In this document: positions 1-61,699 of the stretch, in pieces
Position numbering within the stretch: the first letter of the stretch is position 1
Layout: every line of letters begins with the position of its first letter
Assembly (NCBI GenBank): GCA_010909165.1
Contig: VJWM01000223.1
Span: forward strand, 1-64,000
Reading direction: 5' to 3'
DNA: 64,000 nt
From: Anthoceros angustus
Taxonomy: Eukaryota; Plantae; Anthocerotophyta
Notes under the pieces: model-generated
The model's database searches: none
Told to the model about the DNA's origin: nothing
Seen by the model: only the letters and a program-made list of their open reading frames with translations
Program-made: the position numbers and the translations under genes

Positions 1-269
1 CATCTGGCTTGACCTCCGACGGACCTTTGGTCTAAGGGATTGCACACATGTAATGTCGCCAAAAATGACCTTATTGCTAACCTCCCTATCCTCTACTCCC
101 ACCGAAAAAAAACAAGACTAAAACAGTCGCTGTGGAGTACGGACATCGGATTTGGCACCTACACCTCTCCAAGTCCGCTATTTCAAGTGAGTATTCAACT
201 TGACTTCAACAAATCTCATCGATCTGCCGACAGCTATCATCCACATATTGGGATCAAAATGAGCAAGCT

Positions 270-2976
270 TTGATCCTTAGCTTGCTTTGTAAGTAGAGGC
301 GATCCTCATCACTACGTTTGTAGCCTTGAGAAAGCATAAATGGAGTGGAACTTGTGATACCACTCTCCACAGTGCCTATTTCAAACCATAAAGGTTTCTT
401 ATAACGCACACCGATTCTCTTTGCCCTTCTCAACAAAACCTTTGTTGTCAGACAAGCGCCCTCTTGAGGTCACCATGCAAGAATGCCGTTTGACATCCAT
501 CCGCATAAGTTCCATAGCAACCAAAGCAAGAACACATCGCAGTTATCATTTGACCATGTGAGAAAATCTCATCAAAGTCAATGCCTAGTTGTTGCTTGAA
601 ACACTTAGCAACCAATCGTAGTACTTTGGTTTGCCATCAAGGGTATGACCTTCATCTTGTACACCCATTTGTACAGAGTGCTCTTATCTCAGCAACCAAC
701 TCCCAAGTTTGCCTTATGCAAATACGAGAGGACTATATGGCCTTCTCTTACTTTGTTACTCATTGACACGGCCTCTTTGTGAAGAGGGTTCTCCAACTGT
801 CAAAGATTACATAATCCGTAGATGGATCACCGCCGAGGGCGGTAATCCCGCTACCCACGAAGCGAGCACCTCTATAGGAGCTTGTTCGACCTTTAGTTCA
901 TCTACCGGTGGAGGGAATGTGCTCGCACCTACTCATCAACCCCGACATGATCGCGTCCATCTTCTTGAAGATCACCCTTCGTACCTCCAGGTTGGAGTAG
1001 GCTTCCTGCATCTTGTTCTCATTGAAACTGCTAGTAATGAACAACTTTTCTAGCTTCGGATCCCACAAACGATATCCATCCGGAATCACCATAGCCAAGA
1101 AAATACATTTCTTGGACTTAGCCAACTGGAAACTCTTGAACATGGCGTATGCCCGCGCCCAAACACCCAAATGCTTTTAGGATGGTTTCTTGACATAGCG
1201 CTGGAACTGCTCATCAACAACCATATATTAATAAATGCGGTAGACATCGCTCCCAAAACCCATTAGGCAATCCAGGTTTGACAACAAACTCGATCCTCTC
1301 CGAATGGTTCTGTTTATCCGCCTACCCATTTTGAGGAGACATAATTTTCGATTCCCTTAATCATTGCAGCCGGAAGCTTTCAAACATATACTCTCCATTA
1401 TGTCTCCATACTCAATACTGGCTGACCGATTCTCTATATGGTGACATTTCAAACACTATTTAAATTCATCCTTTTTCCTCAAAGGATAAACCCACACCTT
1501 GCGTGAGAAATCATCTATGAAAGTGACAAAATAGGAGCGCCCTAATGATGCGATGAGGCATAGGTCCACATACATCATCGCGGAACCAACTCAAGAGGTT
1601 TACTCCTACCTTTACCTCTTGTTCGATGTGATGATTTTATGCTTCCCATATAAACGTGCTCACACATCGAGATCAGAGAAGTTAAGAACAAGGATATAAC
1701 CAGAACGAGATAAAACCTTCATTCCCTTCTGAGACATATGTCCTAACCGGCAATGCCATAAGGAAACACTTGGCTGCTCTGTTACATAGATTATATGATC
1801 TTTGACAGTATTTACCTGAAGTAAGTACAAAGTGCCACACTTCGATCCACAAGCTAACACAAGAGAACCTTTGGAGATTTTCCAAGAGTGATCCCCAACC
1901 CAGCAGTGGTAACCAGCATAATCCAATTGTCTGCGCTAATCATGCTTTTTGTCAACTTCGGAACATGCCTAAAGTCCTTCAGCATGAATGAAGATCCGTT
2001 GTCAAACTTGAGCTGCACATCACCAACGCCTGCGATCTGGCATGCGTAGTTATTTCCAAGCCTAACACATCCTTTCCTTGTAGCATCATACGTGCTAAAC
2101 CACTCTCTATAAGGAGTAATGTGGAAAGATGCACCAGAGTCAATTATCCGATTCTTGGAATAAATGAATATCCCACGGTATTAATTATGCGGCAAAGAAG
2201 AGATAAGGACATCTCGTCCTCAGCAATTTAACTCTTCTAACTTTACATTCGAAGTTGCCTTCTTGTCGTCGCTTCTTCTCCTTTGGTCCTTTTGAACTTC
2301 TCGCACTCTCTTTGAAGTGACCCCTTTTGTGACAATAGTGACACTCACATTCTTATTACGACTACGAGATTTACTACGAGAAAAACACATCCGGTTGCTT
2401 CCTTGCGGGACCTCCCTCTCACTATGAGGGCCGGAACCTTTGGAAGGTTCCATATTTTCCTATTCACCTCCTCGGTTGGACTACCTTCTACATTTACAAT
2501 GGTAAGGCCACTAGAGAATTACTCGTAGTTGTGAAAGGTGTCCCAACTTTTCCGTAATGTGACCAAGAAACATAGCTCTCCTGGAAACGAGGGCGATACC
2601 TTGAGATGAAAGTCTGAAATGGTATTGAAATCGTTGAGATGATGGACATCCTCGTCCCTTCCTTCATCTTCAAGTCCACCATTTCAACAATACACACGAG
2701 AAGCCGCACTTTGCTTCTCACATCCTGCACATTCCCGCAGTCAGTAACTCGTGGTCTTATCTTTCACATTGAAGTACACTGTTTTGACAATGTTAGCATG
2801 ATAGTAGATCTAGCAAGCTCATCCAGTCCCGCCACTCATCCCGAGTCATACTATCGGTTTGACCTAACTTTATGGGCTTGATCTCGCACTAGAACATTAT
2901 ACACTTGTTCTTTCCGACGGAAGTTAGTACCATCTAACTTCTCGATATTGAACATGGCGTCTGATGAAGACATCAT
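270..2976 (-). mobile_element. Ty1/Copia gag-pol, frameshifted, truncated within RT; no LTRs or PBS recognised
   Basis: Minus-strand motifs in Copia order: gag start MMSSSDAMFNIEKLDGTNF (ATG 2976); protease IIDSGASFHIT (~2115-2150); GAG-pre-integrase LWHCRLGHMSQKGM (~1730-1770); integrase YFVTFIDDFSRKVWVY (~1490-1535); RT MDVKT/xAFLHGDL (~465-505) and WYHKF..FMLSQGYKRSDED (~300-365). Confidence 0.9.
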
Positions 2977-5649
2977 GACTAAAAATTGTCTGAATAAAAC
3001 ACTCGACTCGCCTTATCGAAAAGTCAAAGAAAAGTCACCGCCAGCGGCCTGGTATTGATTTGTCCAGAGTATTCCGAATATTTTGGCGACTGCTCGCCGC
3101 TGCTCGCATCCACGATTATTTCGTGCTGTGTTCTTGGGGGCTCCGCGCTCTCCCGTTGCGCTCCACGCCCAAATAGCCAGCGGCGTCAACCAAGAGGCAT
3201 GAAGGAATCCAAACACGTCACGAAAAGTGGTGGACCACACGGATAAGTTGATGGTGAACCAATAATGAGAGTCTAGATTACGGTTGTCTTTGTTTTATGC
3301 GGGTTGGTCCATTTGCACCAGCTACCTTAGCGAAATAGAGCCCGCGTGGAGGTTGTGGGATGAAGTGATTGACAAACCGGCATGGCTCATGAATTTGACG
3401 GAAGGGGAACCAATACTAACTTTGATGGAATGCCATACATAGTCTCGTAGAGGAAGGATTGATAAGTTATGGTGTTTTGCGTTACGGGTGGACAAACGAG
3501 ATCACTCCGTCAGAAACTCATGATCCCATCACCCAAGTCGGTCAAGTAGGCCAAGTGGTCGGTTGAGAGGGAGCATAGTCCCATCCGATCCATAGCATTT
3601 GAAGAGTAGTGGTGGAGTCGGAATGGAATATGAAATAGCGCCTAGCAAGAATGATGTGTTCTTGGCGGACATGGCGCATGTCGCTGATTTTGAGGAGAAG
3701 TTTAGGTGGGCAATCGATGAGATGGTGCTCAAGTACAAATCGAGTTTACACCGAGATGGCATTGAGGAAGATGAGCACGTTTCTTGCGAGAGGCGTTAAC
3801 GCGTGCTATCGGAAGCAAGGACCGAGATCTTGCAAGATGCGCGTGCTCGCCAAGGCAAGAATGGCCAAGAAGATGTTGAAGGTGGATGAGGTGGAAGAGG
3901 CGTCCGGTTCTACGGTGACACCATTACATACCGTGGATGAGATGTTCGCCAAATTCGCGAAATGTTTCCGTCCATAGAAAAGATTCGGAGTCGAAGTTCA
4001 CCATCAAGCATAACGAACCTCCGATCCGCCTTGAGGTTGAGGCAACGGTAAAGACACGCGTGTGAAGACAATGCGGGAAGCCGCCCAGATCTACATAGGC
4101 TCTCCCGGGAAGGCAAAGGAGGGTGATTGCCAATTTCTTGCATATGATGCACGCAGTGCGGCTGTGGAACAAGCCTATGAGATGGCCGAGCGGGTCATGA
4201 AGGCGATCTGACCGTGCCTATTGGGAGGAGCACAATTTGGTCGGGGGAGATGCCGTGAATAACCCAAGGTTTCATGGTAGAACCACCAACATACTCGGAT
4301 GAATCTGCGGAATTCCCCAAACAAAGGACATATGGCCAATAAGCGCCGCCACTAAAACAGCGGTGGAATGCCTTGCTGAGGGGGCACACAAAGCTTTCGT
4401 GTGAATGCGGTGGGGAAGCGAAAAGGAGCGTTGTCGCACGTGTGCCAAGACCGACATACTGAGCGGCGTGTTGGCAGCCCATCCCGAACTCAAGCCAAAG
4501 GCGGTAGGCGGATGTCGGCCAGAGGAGGGTACACTCGGGCGCTCCTCGGTGAGGTGCAGTGCAAGAAAAATTGGCCATGAGCGTAAGCAAGTTCGGTTGT
4601 CACCACGAGAGTATGATTCGGATCCGAGGTGTATGCACTAATGACCATGAGGTCGTTTGAGGATGACAGCCTTGACTTGGGAAGGCATGCGGAGAAAGAA
4701 GGCCGAGGAAAGGAATCACTCAAGATGCCCAAATCCTTGACGGTGAAGAAGACCGAATGCGGATGTAGAGAAATCACCTAGTGAGCTCATGCTTGAGAAG
4801 GTGATGGATGCCGTAATGAGTTTGCGTGACCTCGGGGTCAAAACACAACCATTGAGGCAAGCGTTAAAGGCCCGGATGCGTATGAGACTACGGGGCGTGA
4901 GGTGTCCGGATGTGTTTGGGTGAACACCTAAAGCTGCGCGCAGGGCAAGGGGCATTGCCATGGTGAAAAACCAAGGCCGAGGTGACGATCAACGGTTCGC
5001 CAACATGTGTTGGTGGACACGGGTGCGGACCGGTATTGCTCGGGCGTGCAAAGCCCTCATTGCGGAGATAAGCTCAAGCCATGTGATGTCCACATCACCA
5101 CATCGCGGAACCAAGGAACGAGTAATGGGAATGACCCGTGAGCCGACGCATAGAATTGCCGGAACCAAGGATGCCTCCATTGTCGGGTTCACCGCTGGTA
5201 TCTAACGCAAGGAACTATGACGTGTTACTTGGGGTGATGCCACACGGCCCAAGAATGGGGTAGATCCACTCGAGCATTTCTGAGCCACGATGGCGAGATG
5301 GAGATTTCACACGTGGCGGGATACCACTTGACATGAGGCGACGGATGAAAAATCAAATAGCATGGTGGCATTCACGGCTTGTTCGGCGGATGTTGTGCAG
5401 AGGCAAGTGGTTTGGGAAGAAACCCAGGATCTCATGCGGGAAGAGGTACAGGAGAGGATGTGGAGCCTGCAAGTGCATGTACATCAGGAAGAACCCCATG
5501 CTATCAGAGGCATTGTCTCGGGAGCTCACCCGACGGAGTCAGTCCAAGGCATGGAAGGCCTCCCACGGGCGTCCAGACAACCATATGCCTAAGAGAATTT
5601 GGATGATACCACCTTGAGGATCAACACGGCCGTGATTCGGTGGCAACCT

Positions 5650-6500
5650 GAGCGAGGCATACATCGATGGAGTTGTGTTCGTGGATCGAGCGGGCTTGAA
5701 GATTAAGAGTGGAATGCGAGTAAAGAAATACACGTGTGTCGAAATAGATGAGAAGGCACGCAAGAGTGTCGGGATCATCGGGATGCAAAGAGCGAGCATG
5801 GAAGCGGTGAAGGGATGTCGAGCAGCTGCCGTCCGATGTTAGCTTGGTGGGGAAAGCAGCTTGAAAGCCATCGGTGTCCGGTCGATGTGTTAGTTGCGGG
5901 ATGGGAATGCGGGACGCTTTCAGAGCTGGTTGTGGAAAGGGTGACGGTGTGGAGATGGCTGCGAAGTGATTAGGATTACAAATACTGAGCAACCCAACTT
6001 GGTACCTATTGGAGAATGTCTGGAGCATTAGACAAACGCGAGCACATCGTGAAGAGCTATGAAAGCTCGGATGGTGGCTAGGTGAGAATTTGTCATTGAT
6101 GCTGTCGGGTTCATATGCCCATCGCGGCGGAGTTTTTGGACCAACATCACCAGGTGGAGGTGTTGAGGCAACATCGAACGACCAAGCCGTAAAAAACGAT
6201 ACGTGGATGAGATTCGGGGCAGGCGGATGTTCTCGGTAGGTCGAAGGACGGACAAACCGTGCTTTCCAAAGAAACAAGATTGGGAAGCCGAGAAGGGCCC
6301 GCCCACGTAAGAACTGCCTTATGCCTTCCGCAGAGGTGGGGACGGCATGGTAGTGGATGTCGCCGGAACGAGTGGTGAGCCCACGGTGGCCGAGCGTGAA
6401 CGAGCCATGGGATTCGACGATGGGACATCACGCGAGGCATCTCCGGCATATCGCCGCAAGTTGCTCGGACAAGCATTCGACCGACTTGCTGCTACCGTTA
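5650..6500 (+). CDS. C5-cytosine DNA methyltransferase domain (DNMT3/DRM-like) inside Gypsy pol, frameshifted
   Basis: Motifs in unpermuted order: I-like MELCS (5667); II YTCVEIDEKAR (~5729-5761); IV VDVLVAGWEC (5881-5910, Cys TGC at 5908); VI WYLLENV (6000-6020); VIII GSYAHR.R.FWTN (~6108-6145); IX ERERAMGFDDGT and X RRKLLGQAFD (in ORF 6347..6700). Confidence 0.85.
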
Positions 6501-9199
6501 TTGAACGTGGTCACACAAATGGGCGGTACAAGACGGAGGTGAGGCACCTATTGGTACTCGAAGGCGAGTTTCCAAAGCATCGTGAAGAAGGTACATCGCG
6601 GACGCGACAATACAAGCCGAGATGGTGTGAATTGACACATGAGTGGCGGATATGCGAGGAACTAGAGCCGATCAACCGAGATCCGGATATGCTACGGTGA
6701 AACCGCCTTCGCTCGGTGAAAGTAGGCGGTATGATCGCATCAAATTCAAGATCACCACCACCACTAGTGAACCCGTGTTCGACGAAGGCACGAGTCCCAT
6801 GGAGTGGGACATCGTGAAGAAGATGCAAGGAATTGGCGGCTAGGGGCTAATTAGGAAGTCCACTTCACGCTGGCTACCGTGTTGCCATTGAAGAAGGATG
6901 AAAATGGCGAATGGAAGGCGGAGGATGTGTGGGGACTATCGTGCTCAATGAGGTGACGCTTATGGAACGATATCCTATGCCCACGGATGAAATTTTCGAT
7001 GCCATCGGCGCCAATTTCACTACGTTGGATTTCGATCTTCAATCGATTGTCATCGAGAGAAAGACAAGTGCAAGATGCCGGGGCAAAGACCAACTTTGGG
7101 AATGGGAAACGATGCCGTTTGGTCTAAAGAACGCGTCATATACTTTCGGTGGCGATTTGGAGCTGCAGGGGCTGCCGCTTTTACGATGCTACATCGATGA
7201 CATCTTGGTGTTTAGCAACCGAAGAACATCTCCAGACTGAGATTCTATTCAGAGGTTGGCCGATCGGGATTAAAGGCACATCCAAAAATGCAAGTTCGCA
7301 TATAAGGAAATAGAATACTTGGGACACAAGATAGTTCCGTGAGGGTGCTGCCTCGGTTGGCTAAGGTACGTGCAATTGATCTAATGCCTCGACCCGACGG
7401 CGTCAGCGTTGAGGGCATTCTTGGATGTCAACTACTATCGCCGCTTTGTCCGCAACATGAGTAGTGTGTGCAAAGCAATATGAATTGCTCAAGAAGGAGT
7501 GCCCGCATGGGAACAAGAGCAAGAACAAGAAGCGAGTTGAAGAACCAAGGCGGAAGGCCAATGTTAAAAGGCCGACTTTGAGAAGCCTTTGTCTTGTACG
7601 GATTGAGTCGGTGGTCTTGGGGCATGCTAGCTCAACAGACGAGGAAGGCAGAGGCGAGTCGTCATATGCGATAGGTCCAACAATGCCGCGGAGGCAAACT
7701 ACGTCATATGAAGGGAATGCTCAGCGGCCGTTTGGGCGGTTTACATTTCGAGTGTATTTGTTTGGTCGGAGCTTCGGTTGATCACGAGATCATCACCCTG
7801 GCGCTGATGACAAACATGAAATTGAGCGGAAACTTGCCGGATGGGCGCTTTGCTTTTGCGATATGCAGTTGTGCATCGAGCGGGCAAAGTGCATCTCAAT
7901 GCCGACTCGGCAGGAACCCGGTGCGACAAAGGTGATGCGGGAGCAAGGCAGACTTTGGATCCACTCAAGGCATGCCTGATTACTACATGGCCCTCATGTC
8001 CATAGAGCAAGAAGATGGAAGGCATCCGGAGGGAGGGAGACATCCGCGAATGAGCAAGCCATACATCTGCGGGAAGGACAGATCCGTATGGACTCTACAG
8101 TTACAACGGAAGATCATCGTTACACCTATGAAACGGCAAAGTATGGTGATGGATCGTGGAGTACTCAAGGAGGTACCACCCATAGGGAGAGGAAGCAATT
8201 GGCAACCAAGGTGCACATCACGCTTGGACACTTTGGGGTAAACGAACGCATCACATGTTGAAGAACGCCTACTTTTGGTCGTGGATGTATGCGGATGTTG
8301 AAAAGGTGGTGGCCAAGTGTGCGTGTGATGCTTAAGGCCGGGTTCAACCCGGGATGTGGTGTCGCGCCCATCGTGGGACTCTTCTTGATGGTCTCGACTT
8401 GATGCTGAGCTACCAATCACCAAGCGTGGCAGACGCATGTTGATGATCGAGCATTTTCAAAATGGGTGGAATTGGCCTTCCGCCGATTAGAAGTTCGCAG
8501 ATATCGCCCGAGCATTTCGCAATGTGTTCTCGGCAGATATGGTAGTTGTTGAGTGCTAATGACCAAGGCAATGAGTTTCGAGGAGAGTTTCAGCGTTCGG
8601 ATCGAAGCGATAGATCACGAACTCCCGAGATCACCCTCGGTGATTGGCGGAGCGATTAGTCACAGACTTTCAAGGATTCGCTGAAATATTGCATGGAGAT
8701 TGAGCCCGCTTGTTGGGATGAGCTATTGCCTTATGTGGCTCGGGATACCGAATCGCAAGCCGCTCTTGGCAACCAGTCAAGTATTACATCATGTTTGGCA
8801 AACGGTCATGCCAAACATAGTGGCGGAACTTACCTCAGCGTGGGTGGGCAGACGAAGGATGTCTTTCGAATTGCAAGCAAGAGCCGAGTTATTTCAGCGT
8901 GTGATGGTGGCCATGGACAACCTAGCCAGGATCGACTTGGTGCATTACTGTGGAGGTTCGTGGAAAGCAAAAGCAAGGAAGTTTGAGGTGGGTGACTTTG
9001 TTTTATCGCATCGACCCTCAACCACTTTGGACGTAAGCCTGGGCGCTTGATTTTGCGAGTGGTACGTCGGTGAACAAGGGGTGATTGAGTTGGAAGGGCA
9101 GGATGGCGAAGGTGTAAAGAGCACATGCGGCATTTGGCCCCATGCCATTTGCCCAATCTGACACGAGGACACAGCGCTGTGCTTCCGGAGACCACGATT

Positions 9200-9335
9200 G
9201 ATCTTGCCCAGCAGGTTCTGCGGCCGTGTCTACGATTGGAATTAATGCTGCCTACGACCAAATGCAAGGGTACCATATCTTTTGCCCTACGTGCCGCTCA
9301 AAATATTCCAGGCGATTGGTTTTGCCACCATTTTC
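9200..9335 (+). CDS. PHD finger at the C-terminus of the Gypsy integrase region, frameshifted
   Basis: Read across frames: DLA(C)QVCG...ELML.(C)DQC.KGYHIFCL..PL..IP.GDWFC, matching the C4HC3 PHD consensus (MLLCD.C..GYH..CL.PPL..IP.GDWFC). Confidence 0.75.
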
Positions 9336-9421: not shown

Positions 9422-9642
9422 TGTCGCGCGGGCGATGCGGCGTAGGTGTAGAAATGATTGGGGGGTATACTGCTCGGTGTTTGGAGCCCTAAACGGCATC
9501 ATGGTGCTCAGGCAAAGAAGCTGGGGCATCGGGCCGGGGTGTGTGGCGAGAAGGCCAGCACCACGAGCGCGTGAAGACCTTGTAGCGGCGGGAGTCGTCT
9601 GGTCGCAGCGAGGTCGGAACTCTCACCGGGATGAACGATTGT
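9422..9642 (+). mobile_element. Probable 5' part of the 3' LTR of the DNMT-Gypsy
   Basis: Starts TGTCGCGC shortly after a purine-rich stretch (aataaagtgaggg) downstream of the PHD. The exact reverse complement GCGCGACA lies at 26215-26222. Confidence 0.5.
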
Positions 9643-10123
9643 GGGTGTGGATTCGTGTCCGAGGGGACAAGTGAGGTCCACATTCACCCCTCAATGTCGT
9701 TGTAGGCTTAGGATTCGCTCCCAAGGGAATGGTTTGTGCCAAGAGGCGCTAACTTCTATCATGACCTTCACCTAAGTCAAGACTTGCACTGTACTCCTCT
9801 TACCTATCTACTCAACCACTACTACCCCCTTGTCTAGCCACCACGGCTCTTATTCCACGACCGCCCTCTCATTCCACGACCCGGTGCTCTCACCGGTAGT
9901 TGCTACCACCGGTGGGTCCACACCCAAACCCTAGCGACTTATTTCCGGCCGCGCGCGGATCTGCCAGGCGTCCAGCGCGGATCCGGCTTTATTCGCACTC
10001 CACACACACACACCGATTCCTAGGGACCTAAATTCCACAAATCCCTCACGCTCCACACACACACAAAGGCGCCACACTCACACAACTTTACAAGGGCAGC
10101 TGTTCCCCTTGCGCCTTCCACCA
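9643..10123 (-). mobile_element. Truncated second copy of the Athila-like element (PBS, leader, start of gag)
   Basis: Near-identical to 19546-20019, including the PBS-like minus-strand TGGTGGAAGGCGCAAGGG (~10104-10123). Confidence 0.85.
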
Positions 10124-13100
10124 ATGGTTTGGTTTCTTTTGGATTCACACAATCTCCTTTAGCCTCTCAATTAGTTCCCCTTCTCAACCCCTCTCACACC
10201 TCGCGCATCTGATGTTTAGTCACTCCTTCACCCAATCTTCTCCTCTCTCTCTCTCCCTCAACTTTGCTTCCAACCATCCACTCAACACTTCTCAATTGAA
10301 CACAACTAGCGAGGACAAGTGTGAAGGAAAGAAGAACCCCAGGCGTCACGGCGGCGTTGAGCAAGCTCCGGACCGCGCCAATCCCTTGGTTTCCTCCTCC
10401 TTTGTCGGCCAAGATTGCTTTCACCCCTCCTCCCAGTGCGGAGCAAGCTCCGGACCGCGCCAATCCCTTGGTTTCCTCCTCCTTTGTCGGCCAAGATTGC
10501 TTTCACCCCTCCTCCCAGTGCGGAGCAAGCTCTCGACCACCCTAGGGCGTCTCGCCACCGCCTCTCAATCGGACGTCTCCAACCAGCCACACAGGCGTGG
10601 GGATCTCAACCGAGTGCTCGGCGTGAGGGACCTAATTCGCCCCTCTTATACATCGGTGGGGCACCACCGGATTTTAGGTCCTAAGATGGCTATCGCGAAG
10701 AGGCGCCCACAATTCGGGCGATCCTAGGTCGATCGGCATCTAACCAAATTATCTTTAGGTTGCTACCACCTCATGTCTGCGCGCCCTACCTCGACTTGGC
10801 GTCGGCCTCGTCCTCCATTCTGCCGCCACGAGCTCTGCCACGCTGGTGGACGGGTTCTCCCACTACTTCCACCTCACATCGCTGCTGGGCGTCCGAATTT
10901 GAGGTGTACCCTGCCACAGGGCTTCGCATCTTCCCTATTCTTTGAGGATTATTCGGCTCCTCGTCCACCCAAGCTGGACCTCCTCCTCGCTCAACTCCTC
11001 CAAAGTCGCCTCCGCATAATAGGAGCCAACCCCCACCGGCGCGGTAGAAGTATGCACCGGGTCCTCACTTGCATGGGTAGGCCACGATCCCTCCTATTTC
11101 CACACGCACATGGGCGGTGAGGTTAAGCCGCGTTCTCCATTCACATATAGACCGGGCACATAAGTTTCCTCATCCATGTGCCGTAATATAATAGGACCCC
11201 TATGCGGTGAGGTGCTTACCCCCTCCTCCCGTAGGCTACACAGTTGCACGGCCTATGTCCTCGCGGCGCCACGTCGCATCCATCGCCCCGGCCTGCACCT
11301 TCGGGTTGGTTGCGCCAATGTCGGTGGCGGTTTCGACTACGCGGTAGTGGACTCCACGGCCTCGTTCGTTCGGCAACCGGTAGGTGAGGTTTCGGCTACC
11401 TCGGTTCTTTGCTTCCTTCGGTGTCCGCTACTCGATCGTGGTCACGCTACCGCTTCCCCTTCCCTTTGTCTTTTACGGCCCGGCCCGTGCCTCATCCGCT
11501 CCGCTTATATCGCTCCGCTAGCTTATGGGCCTTTTCCAGAGGCTTCACGCTCTGGGCTCGCAACAACTCCCCACCATCTCTGGTTCGCCTCGTGGGCATC
11601 CTTAATTTGAGCCATGAGTGCTTCCTGGCTCGTCATGGCTTGCAACTTCTCACAGGCCTGCACAAATCTTCTTGAATCTTGGCCCTTATTTCCTCTAGGT
11701 TCCGCTTGTCTTCCTCCATTGCTTGCGCTTGGCCTCCTCTTCGTCAAACGGCCTTCACCACTTCCTCCGTCGCACCGAGCCGGTGAGAGCTAAAGCGCTT
11801 GATCCAACAAATGCTTGGGCCGGATCATCGGCGTGGTCGGCTCACGCAAGTCCACTTGTTGTGGCCCCGGCGCCATCCCTCATCGAGAACTTTCCTCCCA
11901 GTGCGCACCCTCACCAATTCGGTTGCATCCACCTCTGTTGCGGTGGAGTCCCTTGAAAATCTCTTCCCATCTTTGAGGAGGGTCCGCCTCGAGGTCGACC
12001 CTAAACCCTCGGAGTTGATTCATCATCGCATCCGTCGCAAAATTGTCCTCGGATCGCGCCTCCTCTTCGCCACCTCAAGCTGCCGTTTGGCTTTCATTTT
12101 CATGTAGCCTTGGCGACCTTTGTGGCGCGCATCCGCCTTCACCTTTTTATGCCGCCTTCACCCCGGTCTTCCTCCTTTTCTTTGGTGGGAATTTCCTTCT
12201 CCTCCTCCAGGCACTGTCGCCACTCCCGGCTATCCGATTTTTCCTCCTTGGGCTCCTCCGCCTTCCATTTCACCTCCCTAAGCTTCCACATGTGGAGGAG
12301 GCTACAATCTCCACCTCGGCGGGGCGGTTAGCGTAAACATAAAGATGGACGGAAATGGTGAGATTAGAGGCGGGGGGAGGAAATCAAGTTCAACCTCTCT
12401 TCACACAACTTGTCGAAGAGAATTACTCGATCTTCGCCCCTTGACCACTTCATGAAGGAGCGGCGGCGGCAAGTGGTCGGACAAATAATCGCTTCTTGTC
12501 TTTGCGAAACATAGGAGCCATCGGCGGACCCATCAAGCTGTTGCCAAATCCCTCGTCAACCGGCCGTTGGGTTCATTCGCCCGCTTTAACGGGCTGCTGC
12601 TTCTTCTTTGCTTCTTTTCTGGGCTCCATCACCAACCCGCCCGCCTCCTCCTTGCCCGCCCATACACCCTTCTAACCACTCCGGTCCCAATCCTGCGGCT
12701 CTAAATCCCCCGCTGGTTCATCGCCGGTGGCGCACACTCCTGCCAGTCCAGTTCATGTAATTCCACCGCTCTTCCATGAAACCCGGCTTGACTCCTTCAC
12801 GGCTCCCATCGAACTTTCCAATGATCCATGTTCGGCCATTGGGCAAGCACAATTTGTGGTGACCTTGGCGCCATCCTCTCACGGTCTCGCGCCTCCGCGC
12901 CACCTCGCTGCGAATTTCACGGAGGTCGGTCTCGGGGTTCCTACCTCCTCGGCAAGGGCGCGTCTGTCGCGCCTTCCTCCTCCTGCGTCGCGCCTCGCGA
13001 TATCGGCAGCGGGGTTGAGCTCCTTCCCGTCGTTGCGCCTCGCGCCCTCCTGCGATCACGGTGCCCCGGACCGGCTCCTCGACTTCGTCCCGCCGCGTCG

Positions 13101-13526
13101 TCGCTCCGCCCGCTCGCTCCGTCCGGCCGCCGTTGCGCTCCGTTGTTTGAGCAGGATTACATCATTCCTAGGGTTAAGTTTCCCGGTTCCCCTACTCTGT
13201 TAGACCTCTGCTTCCACATCCCAATCCACAACCCACACTCATTCGGCTACCAGCGTGGTCGACCCCAACTTATAGACTCTAATTATTCCAAACCCCCTAT
13301 CTCACATATATAGACTTTTTAGGGAACATTAGTCCATGGGCCAAGGAACACCAAATTCCGGACCATTTATTTTCTAACCTAGGCAATAAAACAAAAAGAA
13401 CTCCATAGGCCAAGGACATTTTACTATGAATATCCCCAACTACCAATCGACTTATTTTCACACCACTCAAAAAAAACAAAAAATTCACTTGGGCACATTT
13501 TGAGTTTCGAGACTAGATCGTTTACA
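10124..13526 (-). repeat. Long LTR (~3.4 kb) of Athila-like Gypsy, left copy
   Basis: Direct repeat of 20020-24286. Minus strand begins TGTAAAC at 13526, preceded by a PPT. TATA-like TGTATAAG near 10645-10652. Confidence 0.85.
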
Positions 13527-13540
13527 TACTCCCTTCTCAT
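13527..13540 (-). other. Polypurine tract
   Basis: Minus strand ATGAGAAGGGAGTA directly abuts the LTR start TG. Confidence 0.7.
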
Positions 13541-13559
13541 TTGTTGGCGTCCCGCCAAC

Positions 13560-16500
13560 TTATATAATACTTCTTGACCCTCCACCCATTGACTCGGGTG
13601 GTAGTGGAGGTCCGCTAACTCTTGCGGTTGTCTTGAGCCATTCTTGAAGACTTGAGAACCCTATGGCCCCATCCATCGAAGGTGGAGCTTGCGGAAAGTG
13701 CATGTACCTATTGTCGTGCAATGAGGCCAAGTCAAGAATCACCCACTCTTGCTTCCATAGATTGTCATGCCATATTTTCCTTTTACTTTGAATATATCAT
13801 GACGCTCACTGTTCCCCTATCCTCTGTATGTTTAGAAGCGACCAGGCGTTCGGTGACTTTCCTCTCGCCATGCGGTTAGTTTCACAGATCGCGGTGGGAA
13901 TTTCAAACTCAATAGGCATTAGGAGAATGGCGTAGGTGAGGTAATACGGTGTTTGTTGCGTTGTTATTTTCTCTGCGATCCTGTATGCCGGGCGCGGGAA
14001 GCTTAAGATCCCGATCGTCGCGTATTCCACCGTTAGCTTGTTGAGGATCACCACAAGAGCCATTCGCCTTTTCCGTTAAGCCATTTGCCTTGGGATTATA
14101 AGGAGTCGTTTTCTGTGGCGACGTTGAAGTAGATCGTCATATGAGATATAACCGTTGTGAAATGTGACCCTCATCGTGACAAGCTCAAGGGACAGCCATA
14201 TCGGTGATAATCATTCATAGAGGAACTGGCCACTACATGGTTTTGTACTGCGTGCTTGGGCTTCCACCATACGCGTGCAATGATAGTGGCCACGAGGATG
14301 TATTGGTTTTGTCGCGTCCTCGTTTTGGTGTATGGGACCAACAAAGTCTATTCCCCATTTCTCGAATGGCGCGGGCCAATATTGGAACCATTGGCCATTG
14401 AGTGGTTGCGGACGGTTTCCCAACCCTCTGACAGGCATCGCAGCGTTTAACAAACTCCCTAGCATCCTGATGCATGGTTTGCCACCAGTACCCCGTTTCA
14501 AGCACCTTCTTGCACGTGATATGTGCAGCAAAATGTCCTCCGCTTCCCCTCGTGCATCTCGTATTTTCGGATAACGCTCCTTGTTACCCATAACTGTCCG
14601 CCCATCCGGTCCCGATCATGATTGTCTTTGCGTCGTACAAGCGGGCGAATAGTGCCTAAACGCTTTGCGGGGGTTTGAAAGATCCGATGGTATTTTCCCC
14701 GTTTCCAAGAATTCCATCATCTCCTCGTGAGTGGGCCTTGTGTATCCCGTTCTCCCCTTCTCATTTCCTGCCGAGCCACCATTTACCCTCGCCTTATGGT
14801 TGGTGCGCTTCCCCTCTAACTTTCATGTGACAGGCTTCATCGGGAAAATCGTCGTTTTGGTCCTGTGTAACCTCCTCTGTTTTCAGCCTCGAAATGTAAT
14901 CTGCATTCACATGTTTACTCCCTCCTCTGGTCTCCACCGTGAACGTGAATTCTTGCAGGAGTAGGATCCATCTTGCTATGCGTCCAGACAAGTCAGTTTT
15001 GTTTACCAGGTGTTTGAGGGCGAAGTGGTCCACATGGAAGACGAACTCGTAGGATAGCAAATAGTGACGAAACTTGCGAACCGAGTACACCATCCTAGCG
15101 CCTCCTCTCGGTGGTGGTATACTTCTTCTGCGTCGGTGCTGCCTCCTGCATAATAGATTGGATAATCGTGCTTCTTGTCATCCCTTTGGCTTAGAATGGT
15201 ACCGATTGCATAGGCGAAGCGTCTACAAACACGTGGAACTTCTTGTTCGATCGGCCCCGCGTGGGTCTTGTGATCGGTGGTGCGAAGATCATTGAAGGCC
15301 TCCTCTCGTTTTGCGTCCATTCCACTCCGGTCCTTGCGAAGCAATTACATGGCGGGTGCCCTTACGGAGAAATTCTTCACAAACCTTGATAATAGCCTAC
15401 CATTCGAGGAATCCCTAAGCTCCTTGATTGTGGTAGGTGGCTTGAGGTAATGATTTTGACCTTATCCGGGTCGACCTCTATCCCATGGCAATCGGTGCCC
15501 CAACAAAATACCCTCGGCATGCCGAAATAACACTTCTCGGGATGTAGACACAATTGTCTGCATTGACCGTTCGGACATTTGCGAAGGTGGTTGAGGTGAT
15601 CTTTTGCTGCTCCAAACACGCGAAGTCATCCGGAAGACCTCCATGAAGTCCCTAAGGTATTCCTTGAAAATCTTGACAATCGCATGAAGGATCACGGTGC
15701 CCTGTTAATCCGAGCGCTCCGTTTGTAGGCATAGGTTCCCGATCATAGTGAAGGTGGGGCCAATCACTCTCACGAGATGTGATTATACCCGAATACCCAT
15801 CCGAGCAGGTAGACCATTCTCCCGCTAAGTCCGATTATGTTGTCTATGAATGGAAGCGGGTAATGGTCTTTTTGGTCACCTTGTTTAACTTCCTCCAATC
15901 TGGGACCGTATCTTCCCTTACGCTTTTTGGGAACCACCACAATTGGGGCTACCCACTCCGATGTCACAATAGGATATATGGCGTGCAAGTAGAGCTCAAT
16001 TGTTCCTTTACCTTGAATACTTTGGATTTAGCTTGTATTGCGGTATCCGGGGCACGGCTCGAGATCAATCTTGTGCTCCCCACTCCCTCGGTATACCCTT
16101 CATATACGTAACGTCAAAAGCAAAACGTGGATAAATTCCATGCAATTTGTTTCATACCCCTTTCCAAGTCTGCATTCATCCTTCGAAAACTTAAGGACCT
16201 TGCCGGGCAACACTTCCACATCCTTGACCTCATCCGTGCATGCCTCTCTCTCCACCGGCGGATGTGATGCGAACCCTTCCTCCTGTCTTGGTTCTCCTTG
16301 GCGCATTCCCCATTCCGGAATAGGTCGTCGAGGTAAAGCGTGAGACACCCTCCTCGCACCCTCGAAGTTTGTCCGGATCGCTCGGCTCACCTCTACTTCT
16401 TGTTCCTCGACCTCTCCGGTCTCCTCTCCGACCACGGGTTGTCAATTGTGACTCCATAGCACCCTAATAGGTTGATGGAATGGGAATATCTCTCCGTGTA

Positions 16501-19500
16501 TCGTCCTCTTCATCGACCACGAAATATGCGAATGGGAATTTCTCCTTCTCATCCTCTCCCAGGTATCTTGAGGTGTATCCCTCCGTTTCGTGGGTGTCTC
16601 CCTGCGTCGTATCTGCTCCAAGTCAAACATATCCTTCCTCCTTAATTTTGGGGTCCCGTCCAGGTTTGAATCCACTTCCTTTCTCGCCCATTTGAAGGTG
16701 CAACGTGCCCCATACATCCATGTTCGTCAATGAGAACCTCATACCACAGCGCTTTTTGTTTAATGACCACGTAGTCCATGAGGTGCGGAATGGTACCAAT
16801 ATGGGTTAGGACTCCGTCGGCTCCCCTACCGGCGCCATTTTGGACATGTCCGCAACACCTTTGATGTATGTTCTCTGCAACCCAAGCTTAGGCGGTCTCC
16901 TCTGTCATGATGTTGACTCGACCCGGAATCTAGCGGCACCTTCTTGATTACACATCCATAATTTCTATCTAGCTCCAGGTCACAGTCCATCATGGCCACC
17001 ATATTCACAGCAAGGGATTTCGGCCTTGGGGTGGAAAGGTTCCGTCTCTTCTTGGGTTGTGCCGCCTTCAATGCCCCAGTTCTTTGGCGGTCTGCGGATT
17101 CCACGAGGCATGAGCGTTATCATGAACTTTTGGTCCATGATAGCGTCATAAATTGAAAGGAACACTGTGCTTTGTTTCTCCTTGCCAACCCCACCGTCAT
17201 TTCATCCATGATGGTATTTGAGATGTTGCGGTCGTTGAAGCAGGCGTGGGTGGGTCGGTGGGTCGATGGCCAAAATACGGCCGAGTCTGTTCGATTCTTG
17301 TCGGATCATATCCATAACCTTCCACGACATCGGTGAGCGCCGACTCATCCTTTTTTCCTCTTGCGGGTTTTCGCCCCATGTGTCGACTCGAGTCCACTTC
17401 GTCCGTCCTTGTTTTACCCCTCGAATCCAGCGGTCTCTGCTAAGGAGTTACACTGTGATGCCATCCGAAATCGCAACCCTCGCGTTAAGTGTGGCGTTAG
17501 TGCCTTGCTCCCGTCCATTTTGGATTCGCATGCCCTTTTCTTTTTCGGCTCCCATCGAGTCCCTCGTCGATTTTGTGGTTGGACTTCTCTTCCTTCCCGC
17601 TTTGATGAAGCGCCTCTTCCTCCTCACTTGCGGACGTTATGCTCCCACTCCGTTCTTCTTCCTTTTTCCTCGCTCCCCTTCTTAGGGTGTCGCCTTCCTC
17701 TCGCCGCTCCGTGTCCGAGACCATCGCGGGGTTCCGTAATACCCACTATCCACATCCCCAACCCTTCCGGGCTCCTCGTGCAGCCTCGGAATCCTCCATC
17801 TGACCATGGCGCATCTTGACTTGCATTGCGGCAGCGGGCTTTCTTGTCGGGGGTGGGTCGCCGGAGGTTGAGCGATCCTCACTGTTTTTTCGGTGTCTGG
17901 CGGAGGCCACGTGACTGATTGCTTGCGGTCCACACGTCTTTCAAAATCACCATTCCCTGGCGAGATGCGGAGGGGCATCCAGCAAGATGCGAACCCTCGG
18001 CAATTGTAACCTTGGGCGGCACTCATTTGCGGGGTTCCTTGCCATCGATTGCGAATGCCCATGCACGTGGGGTTTCGCAAACTCGAGTACAAAGTTTTGG
18101 TACCAGATCGGTGTTGCCTCTTGAATTTGGTATGTATCTTCCAAGCACATCTCCTCATCCTCTTCCTCGTAGCCCAGTGGTTGCACTTTTGTTTGTGGAT
18201 TCGACCTCGAGTGCCCTCATCCACAAGTTGAGCGAAGAGATTCGCCCGCGCTCCGGTAGCAACCCTTCTTCTATCATGGTCCTTGATGGCATTAAGATGG
18301 AGTTTCTCGGTTTGACCATCATTTCCTCCATCTTGTTCCCTTGTTGCTCCACTTTTTTTGGCTGTTTCCACCTCTCTTCTCACACTCCGCGTCCTTTCGT
18401 GCATATAGCGGCTCCTTCCCTTTTGCACGTCGTCTTGTTTCCAGTCATTTTTCCCTTCTTCCTTCTATCCCTTGATTTCGCTCATCGTGAATTCTCCTCC
18501 GAATCCTCATGGTCTCCTCTTGGTGGAGCTACCGGGAGTCGGTTGAAAACTATCCTCCTCCATGAGCTGTCATCGGAGGCGAATAGTACTTCTTCTTCTT
18601 TTGTATTTCTTTTGTATTTCTTTTTGTCCTTAGTGCGCCCTTGTTGAGTTCTTCTTCTCTTCCGCGTTGGACTCCTCATAGTTCGAGCGGCTTTAATCGC
18701 CCGATCCAAATCTTTCGGCACATACGTGCCTTCCCATCTCCAATCCTCTTGCAAACCGGTGAATGGCCATTAGCTCAGTGCGGACCGGCCCGATCCGTGG
18801 GGCTGGAACCTTTCCACATAAGCTGCGGTCTCCTTCTTCCCTCTCAATCCCTCCAGTTTGGACAAGACATATCCTTCCACATCGACCCCTCTGATCTTTC
18901 ACAAAAGCTCTCTTCAAGGCCCCAAAGTAGGCGGGGTGTGGAAGCTATGTACTCCGCTTGTACCACTTGGCGCCGCTCGCGTAAGACTCCATAAAGCAGT
19001 GGGCACGATCGCATCCTCACGGTTGTGGCGTCAGCTCAAAGCAGCTCGACAAACTCGTCGGGATCCTCATGGCCCTTCTTTTCTCCATACGGGTAAGATT
19101 GCTTGTAGTAACAAAGATCGGCCATAAGGTAGTACTTTCAGCGATTGGTAGTTGGCGCCACTACGTGCGGGTGACCTCTACATTCACAGTTATTTGGTGC
19201 GGTGGTCTAGGCAATTTGGGCGAGATCAAAAGACAAGGTGGAATCGGGTACACGGCCCCTTATGCTCGTAGTCGAGGTTGGGAATCGAATCCGTTAAGAT
19301 CGATCCCTAGTTAGAGTTGACTCCTGCCCCTTCCTCGTCCGGCAAGTGTGATCTCCGCCCGTGCTCTCCTCGTAACTCTGCAATCTTTCCGCTTGGCGTT
19401 GCCGTCTTGCGAGCGTTTCCCCAGTCGGATCGAATCGCTTGTCTCCACCGAGGCATCCATCAATCTAGTAATGCTAGACTCTCGTAAGCTAGGGTTAGTC

Positions 19501-19740
19501 CTTCCTCGTCCTTGGCGATTCCATTCCCCAGCGGCGCCAAAATGTGGAGTGTGGATTGTGTCCGGGGACACCGTGAGGTCCACATTCACCCTCAATGTCG
19601 TTGTAGGCTTAGGATTCGCTCCCAAGGGAATGGTTTGTGCCGAGGCGCTAACTTCTATCATCGACCTTCACCTAAGTCAAGACTTACTTGCTATTACTCC
19701 TCTTACCTATCTACTCAACCACTACTACCCCCTTGTCTAG
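13560..19740 (-). mobile_element. Athila-like (non-chromovirus) Ty3/Gypsy gag-pol, frameshifted
   Basis: Protease VPLDSGSS (~16915-16940); RT IYPIVTSEWVAPIVVVPKK and KDHYPLPFID (ORF 15770..15988); RNase H VRKFRHYLL...DHFALKHL...GRIARWILLLQEF (14794..15093); integrase GYWWQTMHQDAREFVKRCDACQR and PFEKWGIDFVGPI (~14330-14505). Gag start approximate. Confidence 0.9.
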
Positions 19741-20000
19741 CCACCACTCTTATTCCACGGCAAATCTCATTCCACGTCTGTCACACCGGTGCTCTCACGG
19801 TAGTTGCCACCGGTGGGTCCCACCCAAACCCTAGCGACTTATTTCCGGCCGCGCGCGGATCCCGCAGGCGTCACCATGCGGATCGGCTTTGTGCACTCCA
19901 CACACACACACACCGATTCCTAGGGACCTAAATTCCACAAATCCTCACGCTCCACACACACACAAAGGCGCCACACTCACACAACTTTACAAGGGGCTGT

Positions 20001-20019
20001 TCCCCTTGCACTTCCACCA
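20001..20019 (-). other. Primer-binding site
   Basis: Minus strand TGGTGGAAGTGCAAGGGGA immediately inside the 5' LTR, complementary to a tRNA 3' ...ACCA end. The tRNA was not identified. Confidence 0.6.
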
Positions 20020-23000
20020 GACGGTTTGGTTTCTTTTGGATTCACACAATCTCCTTTGCTAGCCTCTCAATTAGTTCCCTTCTCAACCCTCTCACACCTC
20101 GCGCCAGCGTCTGATTGTTTAGTCACTCCTTCACCCAATCTTCTCCCTCTCTCTCTCTCTCCCTCAACTCGCCCGAGCTTCCAACCATCCACTCAACACT
20201 CTCAATTGAACACAACTAGCGAGGACAAGTGTGAAGGAAAAAGAACCCCAGGCGTCCACGGCGGGCGTTGAGCAAGCTCCGGACCGCCCGCGCCAATCCC
20301 TTGGTTTCCTTCCTCCTTTGTGCCAAGATTGCTTTCACCCCTCCTCCCAGTGCGGAGCAAGCTCTCGACCACCCCTAGGGCGTCTCGCGCCTCACCTGTC
20401 AATCGGACGTCTCCAACCAGCCACAGGCGTGGGGATCTCAACCAGGAATTGCTCGGCGTGAGGGACCTAATTGCCCCTCTTATACATCGGTGGGGCACCA
20501 TGCCCGGATTTTAGGTCCTAAGATGGCTATCGCGAAGGCGCCCACAATTCGGGCGATCCTAGGTCGATCGGCATCCTAACCAAATTATCTTTAGGTTGCT
20601 ACCTCACCTCGCTCTGCGCGCCCTACCTCGACTTGGCCGTCGGCCCCTCGTCCTCCATTGCTGCCGCCACGAGCTCTCGCCGCCTGGTCGGACGGGTTCT
20701 CCACACTACTTCCACCTCACATCGCTGGGCGTCCGAATTTGAGGTGTACCACCCTGGGGCTTCGCATCTTCGGCCGCCTATTCGAGGATTATTCGGCTCC
20801 TCGTCCACCCAAGCTGGACCTCCTCCTCGCTCAACTCCTCCAAAGTCGCCTCCGCGCATAATAGGAGCCAACCCCACACGGGCGCGGTGGTAGAAGTATG
20901 CGCCGGGTCCTCACTTGCGATGGTAGGCCACAGATCCCTCCTATTTCCACACGCACATGGGCGGTGAGGTTAAGCACGCGTTCTCCATTCACATATAGAC
21001 CGACATAAGTTTCCTCATCCATGTGCCGTAATATAATAGGACCCTGCTGCGGTGAGGTGCTTACCCCTCCTCCGTAGGCTACACACAGTTGCAGCCTATG
21101 TCCTCGCGGGCGCCACGTCGCATCCCGCCCGCCTGCACTGCCCGGGTTGGTTGCGCCAATGTCGGTGGCGGTTTCGACTACGTAGTGGACTCCACGGCGT
21201 CGTTCGTTCGACAACCGCGGTAGGTGAGGTTTCGGCTACCTCGGTTCTTTGCTTCCTTCCTCGGTAGGCCCTTCCGCTACTCGATCGTGGTCCTGCTACC
21301 CGCTTCCTTCCCTTTGTCTTTTACGGCGCCACGTGCCTCATCCGCTCCGCTTATATCGCTCGCTAGCTTATGGGCCTTTTCCGAGGCCGCTTCACGCTCT
21401 GGGCTGCAACAACTCCCCGCATCTCTGGTTCGCCTCGTGGGCATCCTTAATTTGAGCCATGAGTGCTTCCTGCTGGCTCGTCATGGCTTGCAACTTCTCA
21501 CAGGCCTGCACAAATCTTCTTGAATCTTGGCCCTTATTTCCTCTAGGTTCCGCTTGTCTTCCTCCATTGCTTGCGCTTGGCCTCCTCTTCGTCAAACTGG
21601 CCTTCACCACTTCCTCCGTCGCGCACCGAGCGGTGAGAGCTAAAGCCGCTTGATCCAACAAATGCTTGGGCCCGGATCATCGGCGTGGTCGGCTCCTCGT
21701 CCACCCAAGCTGGACCTCCTCCTCGCTCAACTCCTCCAAAGTCGCCTCCGCGCATAATAGGAGCCAACCCCACACCGGCGCGATGGTAGAAGTATGCGCC
21801 GGGTCCTCACTTGCGATGGTAGGCCCCATCCCTCCTATTTCCACACGCACATGGGCGGTGAGGTTAAGCCGCGTTCTCCATTCACATATAGACCGGCACA
21901 TAAGTTTCCTCATCCATGTGCCGTAATATAATAGGACCCTCTGCGGTGAGGTGCTTACCCCTCCTCCGTAGGCTACACAGTTGCAGCCTATGTCCTCGCG
22001 CCACGTCGCCCCGCCCGCCCCACCGGGTTGGTTGCGCCAATGTCGGTGGCGGTTTCGACTATGATGTGGACTCCACGGCCGTCGTTCGTTCGACAACCGC
22101 GGTAGGTGAGGTTTCGGCTACCTCGGTTCTTTGCTTCCTTCCGCTCGGTAGGCCCGCTACTCGATCGTGGTCCTGCTACCCGCTTCCTTCCCTTTGTCTT
22201 TTACGGCCCGCGTGCCTCATCCGCTCCCCTCGCTAGCTTATGGGCCTTTTCCGAGGCCGCTTCACGCTCTGGGCAACAACTCCCCATCTCTGGTTCGTCT
22301 CGTGGGCATCCTTAATTTGAGCCATGAGTGCTTCCTGGCTCGTCATGGCTTGCTTCTCACAGGCCTGCACAAATCTTCTTGAATCTTGGCCCTTATTTCC
22401 TCTAGGTTCCGCTTGTCTTCCTCCGGTTGCTTGCTTGGCCTCCTCTTCGTCAAACTGGCCTTCACCACTTCCTCCGTCGCCCTGCGAGCCGGTGAGAGCT
22501 AAAGCCGCTTGATCCAACAAATCTTGGGCGGATCATCGGCGTGGTCACTCCTGCAAGTCCACTTGTTGTGGCGGCCCCGCCCCATCCCTCTCGAGAACTT
22601 TCCTCCCAGTGCGCACCCTCACCAATTCGGTTGCATCCACCTCTGTTGCGGTGGAGTCCCTTGAAAATCTCTTCCCATCTTTGAGGAGGGTCCGCCTCGA
22701 GGTCGACCTAAACCCTCGGAGTTGATTCATCATCGCATCCAGTCGGCAAAATTGTCCTCGGATCGCGCCTCCTCTTCGCCACCTCCAAGCCCGTTTGGCT
22801 TTCATTTTCAGTGGCGCGCTTTTCGACACAGTGGCCAGCGCGCATCCTTCACCTTTTTCGTGATGCCCTTTCACCCCGGTCTTCCTCCTTTTCTTTGGTG
22901 GGAATTTCCTTCTCCTCCTCCAGGCGCACTGTCGCCACCGACTCCCGGCTATCCGATTTTTCCTCCTTGGGCTCCTCCGCCTTCCATTTCACCTCCCTAA

Positions 23001-61273: not shown

Positions 61274-61699
61274 TTTTATGGGAAGTTTATGGAATGGGAA
61301 CTATGTTCCAAGCCCATTTTTGGGTCTTTGCTCAATAACTCTCCTTGCATACATATTGATCGGTTTAGCATGGTTTTGGTACCAAATGATGTGCTTTTCC
61401 GTAAGTTTTATGAAAAAGTGTATGGGAACTTCACTAGGTCTATGACTAGGGATAACCAGGATAAAAAAGCATTTCGTTGGTGACGGACCCTCGCAAACGG
61501 AAGCTGATTGCAGCCATCATATAGTGCACTGAAAGTTATAGCTTGTTGAAGAGCATGCAAAACTGGCTGACTGGTTTAGCCATTTCTATAGCTTGTTGAA
61601 GTTTGCTCAGTGAGTTCTACTCTCTTATGTTTAGAGCTTATTGAAATTAGCTCAATGTGTTCTACATCCTCTTTAATTTTTGTGATTTGGGGGAACGCA

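Follow-up and report, generated by a model that had tools for sequence, protein, structure and literature searches.

A DNMT3-like cytosine methyltransferase domain flanked by protease and reverse transcriptase in a Ty3/Gypsy retrotransposon copy

A DNMT3 gene carried by a Gypsy retrotransposon was described in 2018 from the alga Klebsormidium nitens and named KnitGypsy-Dnmt3 (de Mendoza et al.; PMC5890265). In yeast the enzyme of this element produced no methylation, a result that the authors call inconclusive, and SymbioDIRS-Dnmt3 domains methylated CG in the same host. Genomic copies of KnitGypsy-Dnmt3 bear CHG and CHH silencing marks. The passages of the paper compared here argue that such an enzyme is co-packaged with the RNA of its element, whose cDNA it methylates in cis. 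As for host enzymes, passages of PMC6453930 state that the DNMT3 gene is absent from angiosperms, which has no firm bearing on elements, and that the DNMT3 of a moss carries out de novo CG and CHH methylation. A recent preprint refers, in the part compared here, to 'streptophytes (Gypsy-DNMT3)' (bioRxiv 10.64898/2026.05.21.726589). The literature that we compared also included passages of PMC12344493, PMC8566409 and PMC11982613, and a search of PMC2864245 by term gave no occurrence. In this search, which covered a minority of subscription papers and part of the supplementary tables, we found no description of Gypsy-DNMT elements from land plants. Since 2018 it has been a question whether DNMT3 domains borne by Gypsy elements function as enzymes, and of what use they are to the element.

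We analyzed a stretch of 64,000 nucleotides of DNA, which we call the window. The coding region of a Ty3/Gypsy element occupies about 3600-9331 of its + strand. Using tblastn with related proteins and frameshift-aware profiles, we found protease, reverse transcriptase (RT), RNase H and integrase in that order on this single strand. The features of the element are as follows.

3600-4990, + strand: probable gag region, placed by position alone, with a zinc-knuckle-like piece at 4417-4500
4992-5330, + strand: aspartic protease, with VLVDTGA at 5007 and NYDVLLG near 5210, collinear in the protease-linker-DNMT profile alignment
5331-5647, + strand: linker of family length between protease and DNMT, of low identity, crossed by the profile alignment without a large gap
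5648-6502, + strand: DNMT3-like C5 cytosine methyltransferase domain, motifs I-X unpermuted, catalytic Cys at 5908-5910
6727-7909, + strand: RT (YIDD) and RNase H, found by tblastn with two related proteins (P0001 and P0002), with a weak RVT_1 match
8146-9331, + strand: integrase with C-terminal PHD finger, 162.2 bits (shuffle maximum 20.1), Integrase_H2C2 at E 0.004
24288-26219, + strand: possible 3' part of the element past a nested insertion, putatively linked to it

The frameshift-aware profile of protease, linker and DNMT aligned collinearly with 4992-6502 at 183 bits, compared to a shuffle maximum of 22.2. The RT-RNase H profile gave 203.7 bits over 6861-7909 (shuffle maximum 19.5), and the N-terminal part of RT, from 6727, gave 71.5 bits. 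The polyproteins of the relatives end in a PHD finger (PF00628). The gag profile of the relatives gave no significant match, scoring 21.8 bits, under the shuffle maximum of 24.1.

Other elements occupy both flanks, and no LTR pair of the DNMT element was found within the window. Directly upstream, at 1-3200 (- strand), is an element that we take to be of the Copia type; it may have cut off the 5' end of the DNMT element. Downstream, a second LTR element on the - strand spans 9640-24287, with its pol at about 13900-16900 and LTRs of about 3.9 kb (9640-13522 and 19543-24287, the latter with an internal 900-bp duplication) that are 89-91% identical and rich in gaps. No clean target-site duplication was found around this nested insertion, and by its primer-binding site we assume it to be Athila-like. 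Beyond it, a 135-bp direct repeat pair with 95% identity (25498-25637 and 26083-26219) flanks a stretch of about 450 bp that includes a TATA-like word (25925). This pair may represent the B-A-B terminus of split repeats of the DIRS type, a candidate for which the window holds no upstream A copy. Pfam and BLAST gave no credible match on 24290-25600. Rfam and tRNA scans were likewise empty. About 11 tandem 3.3-kb units follow at 26220-59870, each with a PPR-like gene start on the - strand (PF01535 weakly, at E 0.025, in two of three pieces). Pieces at 61600-62600 (- strand) resemble a non-LTR retrotransposon frame, and Pfam gave no match on them.

A sequence-only reading of this locus had placed the motifs of a C5 methyltransferase, in unpermuted order, between VLVDTGA and RT. 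We found them there, scattered over all three frames downstream of 5007 and upstream of 6727: the motif I region at 5660-5700, KKYTCVEID at about 5726-5752, GWEC at 5899-5910, ENV at 6012-6020, AHR at 6117-6125, RSFWTN at 6128-6145, ERERAMGF at 6392-6415 and RRKLLGQAFD at 6452-6481. The domain has no introns and contains, as read, about 8-15 frameshifts and 1-2 stops; RT begins within 230 bases of its end. One frame stays open from motif IX into the RT leader (6311-6697) in sequence with about 14 breaks per kb. The same reading proposed a frameshift-aware HMM search with PF00145 at 5600-6550 and named the absence of a PF00145 match as a refutation, which, taken literally, applies to the raw frames. 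PF00145 was absent from single-frame Pfam scans (none of four DNMT-region fragments and none of six frames), as dense indels break the frames every 60-70 bases. An HMM built from the domains of 20 relatives, without the window sequence, matched 6092-6502 with E 1.5e-15, and in its frameshift-aware form it matched 5648-6502 with 107 bits, compared to 16.1 +/- 1.6 (maximum 20.7) in 100 shuffles; these relatives had been found via a motif VIII pattern, so that the match at motif VIII is given by construction, and those at motifs IV, VI, IX and X are independent. When the window was divided into 78 tiles, the two that overlap the DNMT domain scored best with the frameshift-aware profile and the third scored 20.5. 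No second DNMT copy was found elsewhere in the window.

When one frame of the window was compared with 1.84 billion proteins by phmmer, 18 matches were obtained at E<=0.001, and all 18 fit the retrotransposon-DNMT profile. Other searches with raw sequence were negative. That is, PDB phmmer with raw frames gave chance matches only, a word-based homolog search with 6311-6697 gave none of 328 candidates at E<=0.01, and a scan of metagenomes for related loci with 6311-6520 confirmed none of 599 stretches. A PF03450 protein cluster returned by a 70-residue query was unrelated and was rejected as a short-query artefact.

The window copy keeps 37 of the 46 columns that 90% or more of 50 relatives have in common, including the catalytic Cys, ENV, RxR, WTN and ERE, and has lost nine. 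Two conserved residues are unreadable in it, namely the Gln that follows the catalytic Cys and, in motif I, the second Gly. Two motifs had been called unusual at the outset. The first, ELCS in motif I, falls within the family range, because motif I varies widely among the relatives (EPFGG, ELFAG, DLFGG, ELFSG, ELCGG); ELCS is itself a plausible and ambiguous reading, an alternative frame giving DGVVFVD. The second, GWEC, in which Glu replaces the Pro of the PC motif, proved to be a variant shared within the family, being present in 11 of 27 domains that lie between RNase H and integrase. It occurred in none of 17 protease-DNMT domains; L067 is one bearer of GWEC, and a GWPC form is found in Marchantia. 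Thus GWEC in the window copy is either convergent or the mark of a separate branch.

The domain is closest to DNMT3A/B, as judged from the profile and the modelled fold of its relatives, over DRM, DNMT1, DNMT2 and M.HhaI. The profile of the relatives matched DNMT3A best (E 1.8e-21), followed by DNMT3B/C, DRM2 (1e-10) and M.HhaI (1e-8). An AlphaFold model of one relative's domain (L057) had a pLDDT of 93, and in Foldseek all of the matches listed for it were DNMT3A/B/C. An origin from DRM was rejected on the grounds of the unpermuted motif order and the lower scores; the likeness to DNMT3 rather than DRM that the sequence-only reading had noted is supported.

Stand-alone methyltransferases resembling those of phages and prokaryotes also scored 36-92 bits on the element profile, where DNMT3A scored 79 bits, these enzymes having been picked by the same motif VIII pattern. 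They are low-GC enzymes of about 300 residues (L002, L004 and L007 on viral contigs; L009, L021, L034, L050 and others), and their own profile matches human DNMT3A at E 1e-57, far over M.HhaI, which places a phage/prokaryote group very near DNMT3. When clusters were searched with the domain of one protease-DNMT relative (P0038), PF00145 clusters were obtained, of which the top one was mostly Streptophyta and the following two mostly phage.

Relatives were collected in two ways. The motif VIII DNA pattern found 8 viral and 120 metagenome loci, 80 of the latter with flanks. In 30 of these 128 loci the match was adjacent to RT, RNase H, integrase or PHD: in 28 the DNMT lay after RNase H and/or before integrase-PHD, and in two it lay before RT. 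The remainder were chance matches, short fragments and methyltransferases that stand alone and are about 300 residues long. A profile search among long proteins gave 28 matches among 7984 scored, with lengths of 1218-3475 residues. Fifteen of these 28 were Gag-protease-DNMT proteins that end 48-134 residues past the domain, without RT; one gene model (P0067) continued into RT, four had the DNMT fused before RT, and eight had the order RT-RNase H-DNMT-integrase. PF00145 was found at E<=0.001 in six of nine element proteins in one scan and in five of five in another. No Klebsormidium sequence was among the matches in the protein searches for relatives.

Three of the long relatives were named, and all three were from Marchantia polymorpha. 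One of them, Mp4g09160, belongs to a cluster of 18 members, and the 15 that are listed are all from Marchantia. The Marchantia elements in question surround Mp4g09160, MpVg00370, Mp5g06330 and Mp8g17980. In the literature covered above, three Marchantia genes that were searched by name occurred in no paper. The protease-DNMT order is common to the named Marchantia proteins, 13 further proteins, P0037, P0038, P0010 and the locus L081. From these comparisons the DNMT domain appears as a trait of the family, in either of two positions, namely before RT or between RNase H and integrase. The segment thus recurs in other copies of the family, in Marchantia and further relatives, and its collinear alignment with them through protease and linker argues against a separate insertion outside pol. 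Both results, which bear out the proposal of a Gypsy pol designed like the Klebsormidium element, contradict a one-off capture at the family level.

A single frame from protease through DNMT to integrase, which the sequence-only reading wished to check, is not the rule in the family, because more than half of the long relatives stop after the DNMT; among the relatives, fused and stop-separated DNMT-RT forms both exist, and the window copy may have either. Four full-length copies share their end point, 98 residues past motif X. At L081 an in-frame TGA followed by CGG lies between DNMT and RT (941-938, - strand), and P0037 and P0021 stop at the same place. UGA-CGG is a context of leaky readthrough. 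The single gene model that continues into RT suggests that RT frames lie downstream of the Marchantia DNMT proteins.

In the other order, ten relatives (L015, L022, L026, L030, L031, L036, L045, L057, L060 and L067) have unbroken RT-RNase H-DNMT-integrase-PHD frames of 1970-3610 codons. All ten have the full catalytic motifs, and most are CG-depleted (0.27-0.78) and not CHG-depleted. Several relatives also have long same-strand open frames of 760-1230 codons downstream of pol, at the following positions in the orientation of the element.

L030, 11043-13766: long open frame downstream of pol
L033, 4639-8325: long open frame downstream of pol
L045, 7959-10250: long open frame downstream of pol
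L067, 9215-11521: long open frame downstream of pol
L074, 6676-9357: long open frame downstream of pol

We then compared trees of the DNMT and RT domains. These were quick trees with SH-aLRT support, in which the window is a long branch for both domains, and they omit near-duplicates as well as fragments and any locus shorter than about 650 bases (65 and 26 rows in the DNMT trees, 34 in the RT tree). Both the DNMT and the RT trees separated the RNase H-DNMT-integrase elements (support 98 and 99) from the DNMT-first elements, which include the window. This agreement fits a DNMT that was inherited together with RT and changed its position once. The window DNMT fell inside the element clade, nearest to P0038 (41-42% identity) and P0056. 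It fell outside the group of Marchantia and its sisters, an arrangement to which the AU test adds that inclusion is not rejected (p 0.138), and the profiles of the groups, scoring 111.7, 111.0 and 104.9 on the window, did not separate them. In the RT tree the window joined Calypogeia fissa proteins together with P0005 and P0056 (support 92), distinct from the RNase H-DNMT-integrase clade (support 99). The nearest named relatives of the window element are liverwort elements. Along with this, the weak PPR-like pieces of the array, the shortage of CHG described below and the neighbours of Copia and Athila-like type point indirectly to a land plant as the likely host.

The presence of the DNMT domain, its position and its membership of this family are directly supported, and fold and purifying selection are supported in the relatives. 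We think it fairly probable that the locus is a copy of a PHD-bearing Ty3/Gypsy element of what is likely a non-flowering land plant, that its polyprotein carries a DNMT3-like domain between protease and RT, and that the enzyme likely enters the virus-like particle and likely methylates the new cDNA of its own element before or at integration. The domain would have been captured once, long ago, and then inherited with RT. It may be freed by the protease of the element, or may work while tethered. The enzyme would travel with the element RNA in the virus-like particle and methylate the cDNA in cis, and the pre-methylated cDNA might evade recognition as foreign or might set the chromatin state of the new copy. 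A first frame that stops after the DNMT would yield the enzyme at Gag-like levels, which would suit the marking of a whole cDNA.

The window copy itself may nevertheless be a long-dead relic with real breaks, nonfunctional whatever the family does. We consider this quite possible, if short of an even chance, and it is compatible with the above explanation at the level of the family. Over 4992-6502 there are 24 frameshifts and two stops, the terminal branches in the DNMT and RT trees are long, and other elements lie directly on both sides, one of them nested. Against this, the density of breaks equals the indel rate between repeats of the same window. Frameshifts per kb were 15.9 in protease-DNMT, 14.3 in RT-RNase H and 13.5 in integrase-PHD, and the repeats of the window (the LTR pair of the neighbouring element and the 3.3-kb array units) showed 11-22 gap openings per kb per copy. 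This equal density in all domains, together with the match to the indel noise of the repeats, makes the breaks look like read errors. Moreover, gaps exceeded mismatches in five of seven repeat pairs, and transitions were not dominant in most of them (29 to 44 in the LTR pair). In six pairs 30-46% of the gaps lay within three bases of CHG, about three times the background of 10-17%, the windows around gaps being slightly longer than the background windows. This pattern resembles that of unpolished nanopore sequence of methylated plant DNA. The breaks are thus likely to be mostly read errors, as far as the sequence can tell, and the state of the copy may be better than its appearance suggests; real decay may lie on top of them. 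Throughout the window CHG is under-represented (0.55-0.74) and CG is not. The CHG deficit may come from mutation or from base-calling at methylated CHG, and composition statistics on such gap-rich sequence may reflect base-calling error.

It is also conceivable, and in our opinion unlikely, that the domain is real and conserved but serves mainly as a module for DNA or RNA binding or for chromatin targeting, or that it methylates something other than cDNA, such as the element RNA or the target site. The lack of methylation seen with the Klebsormidium domain in yeast (PMC5890265) would agree with this, as would the change of PC to EC in the window copy and in many of the RNase H-DNMT-integrase domains, and the position of the domain next to integrase in one clade. 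The CG composition points the same way for the window: CG observed/expected was 0.99 in the element and 1.15 in its DNMT part, compared to 0.74-0.95 in neighbours without DNMT, so that the element, not being CG-depleted, shows no footprint of self-methylation at CG. In contrast, eight of 13 related loci were strongly CG-depleted (0.27-0.59). Such depletion is expected with CG methylation, although host enzymes could equally cause it. In addition to this result, the catalytic Cys, ENV and RxR show little or no variation among 19 relatives and are kept in the window. The dN/dS value of the DNMT was 0.03-0.30 in the five of 12 pairs of relatives with computable dS, and the other seven had saturated dS and low dN. 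Pairs bearing GWEC were among the constrained ones (0.03-0.04 for L015/L040 and L083/L027, 0.14 and 0.30), with values like those of RT and RNase H where both were computable. These values indicate purifying selection on the coding sequence of the domain in the relatives, and we considered and rejected a dead pseudo-enzyme as the state of the family.

If the enzyme is active, it might instead act as a brake which marks new copies for silencing by the host and so limits copy number and harm. This was raised in the discussion of PMC5890265, and both the CHG and CHH silencing marks on genomic KnitGypsy-Dnmt3 copies (PMC5890265) and the de novo CG and CHH methylation by moss DNMT3 (PMC6453930) are in line with it. 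However, the families are multicopy and widespread, and selection for self-silencing would be harder to explain than selection for camouflage; we therefore hold the brake to be improbable, more so than a binding module. A one-off captured fragment of a host DNMT3/DRM gene, a separate insertion or chance motifs, to which the lack of Pfam and PDB matches in raw frames and of another copy in the window might point, is extremely improbable, because the window DNMT falls within the retrotransposon clade, has the protease-linker-DNMT order of its relatives, and has neither introns nor the DUF3444 that host plant DNMT3 bears at its C terminus (PMC6453930).

Returning to an enzyme that methylates the cDNA of its own element, we speculate further, and put this forward as a tentative and, taken jointly, rather doubtful extension. 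One ancient capture may have given rise to a PHD-bearing Gypsy clade whose range among green plants takes in algae, liverworts and the host of the window, and in which the DNMT moved between two slots. The DNMT-first branch may make the enzyme together with Gag, ahead of a stop or frameshift that limits the output of RT and integrase, and may thereby load its particles with enzyme and deliver pre-methylated cDNA. GWEC would then mark a C5 enzyme that is active although it lacks the canonical Pro, and the present copy would represent a further unreported sublineage of land plants, maybe near intact.

A Gypsy-borne DNMT3 as such has been known since 2018, and Klebsormidium is the sole case described in the literature covered here. 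New in our analysis are a named multicopy family in the model liverwort Marchantia, the occurrence of the domain in two positions and the stop that follows it in many relatives. Marchantia polymorpha, a genetic model for which methylomes and methylation mutants exist, has several copies of relatives with the full motif set, and the question of activity can thus be put to the test in a land plant. When DNMT genes and de novo methylation are tallied for non-flowering plants, enzymes borne by elements may be among them. From the stop after the DNMT follows a concrete prediction for the dosage of the enzyme in particles.

Compared with known systems, the domain shares its DNMT3-type catalytic part and unpermuted order with the host plant DNMT3 of Yaari et al. 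(2019; passages of PMC6453930). The host DNMT3 differs in its C-terminal DUF3444 and DRM in its permuted order, and neither sits in a retrotransposon. EpiLTRs of Cymbomonas and Euglena are likewise LTR elements with a cytosine methyltransferase and a chromatin reader, but their DNMT is sister to DNMT4 and is accompanied by a DAM methylase and by a chromodomain, and its capture is said to be independent of that of the streptophyte Gypsy-DNMT3 (part of bioRxiv 10.64898/2026.05.21.726589). SymbioDIRS-Dnmt3 and SymbioLINE-Dnmt of Symbiodinium are also C5 methyltransferases borne by retrotransposons, and two domain orders are found in SymbioDIRS-Dnmt3 as well; in contrast to the DDE integrase and PHD finger of the present element, they have a DIRS (tyrosine recombinase) or LINE backbone and dinoflagellate hosts (passages of PMC5890265).

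In design the closest likeness is to KnitGypsy-Dnmt3 (passages of PMC5890265), to which the element may be akin. Both have the Gypsy domain set, an intronless and unpermuted DNMT3-like domain in the coding region, kept catalytic residues, purifying selection (here in the relatives only) and possibly a B-A-B repeat end. The host is an alga there and likely a land plant here, and Marchantia, the home of the named relatives, was outside the seven land plants surveyed in the passages of that paper. In KnitGypsy-Dnmt3 the DNMT is in frame with RT and RNase H, whereas 15 of the 28 long relatives found here stop after the DNMT.
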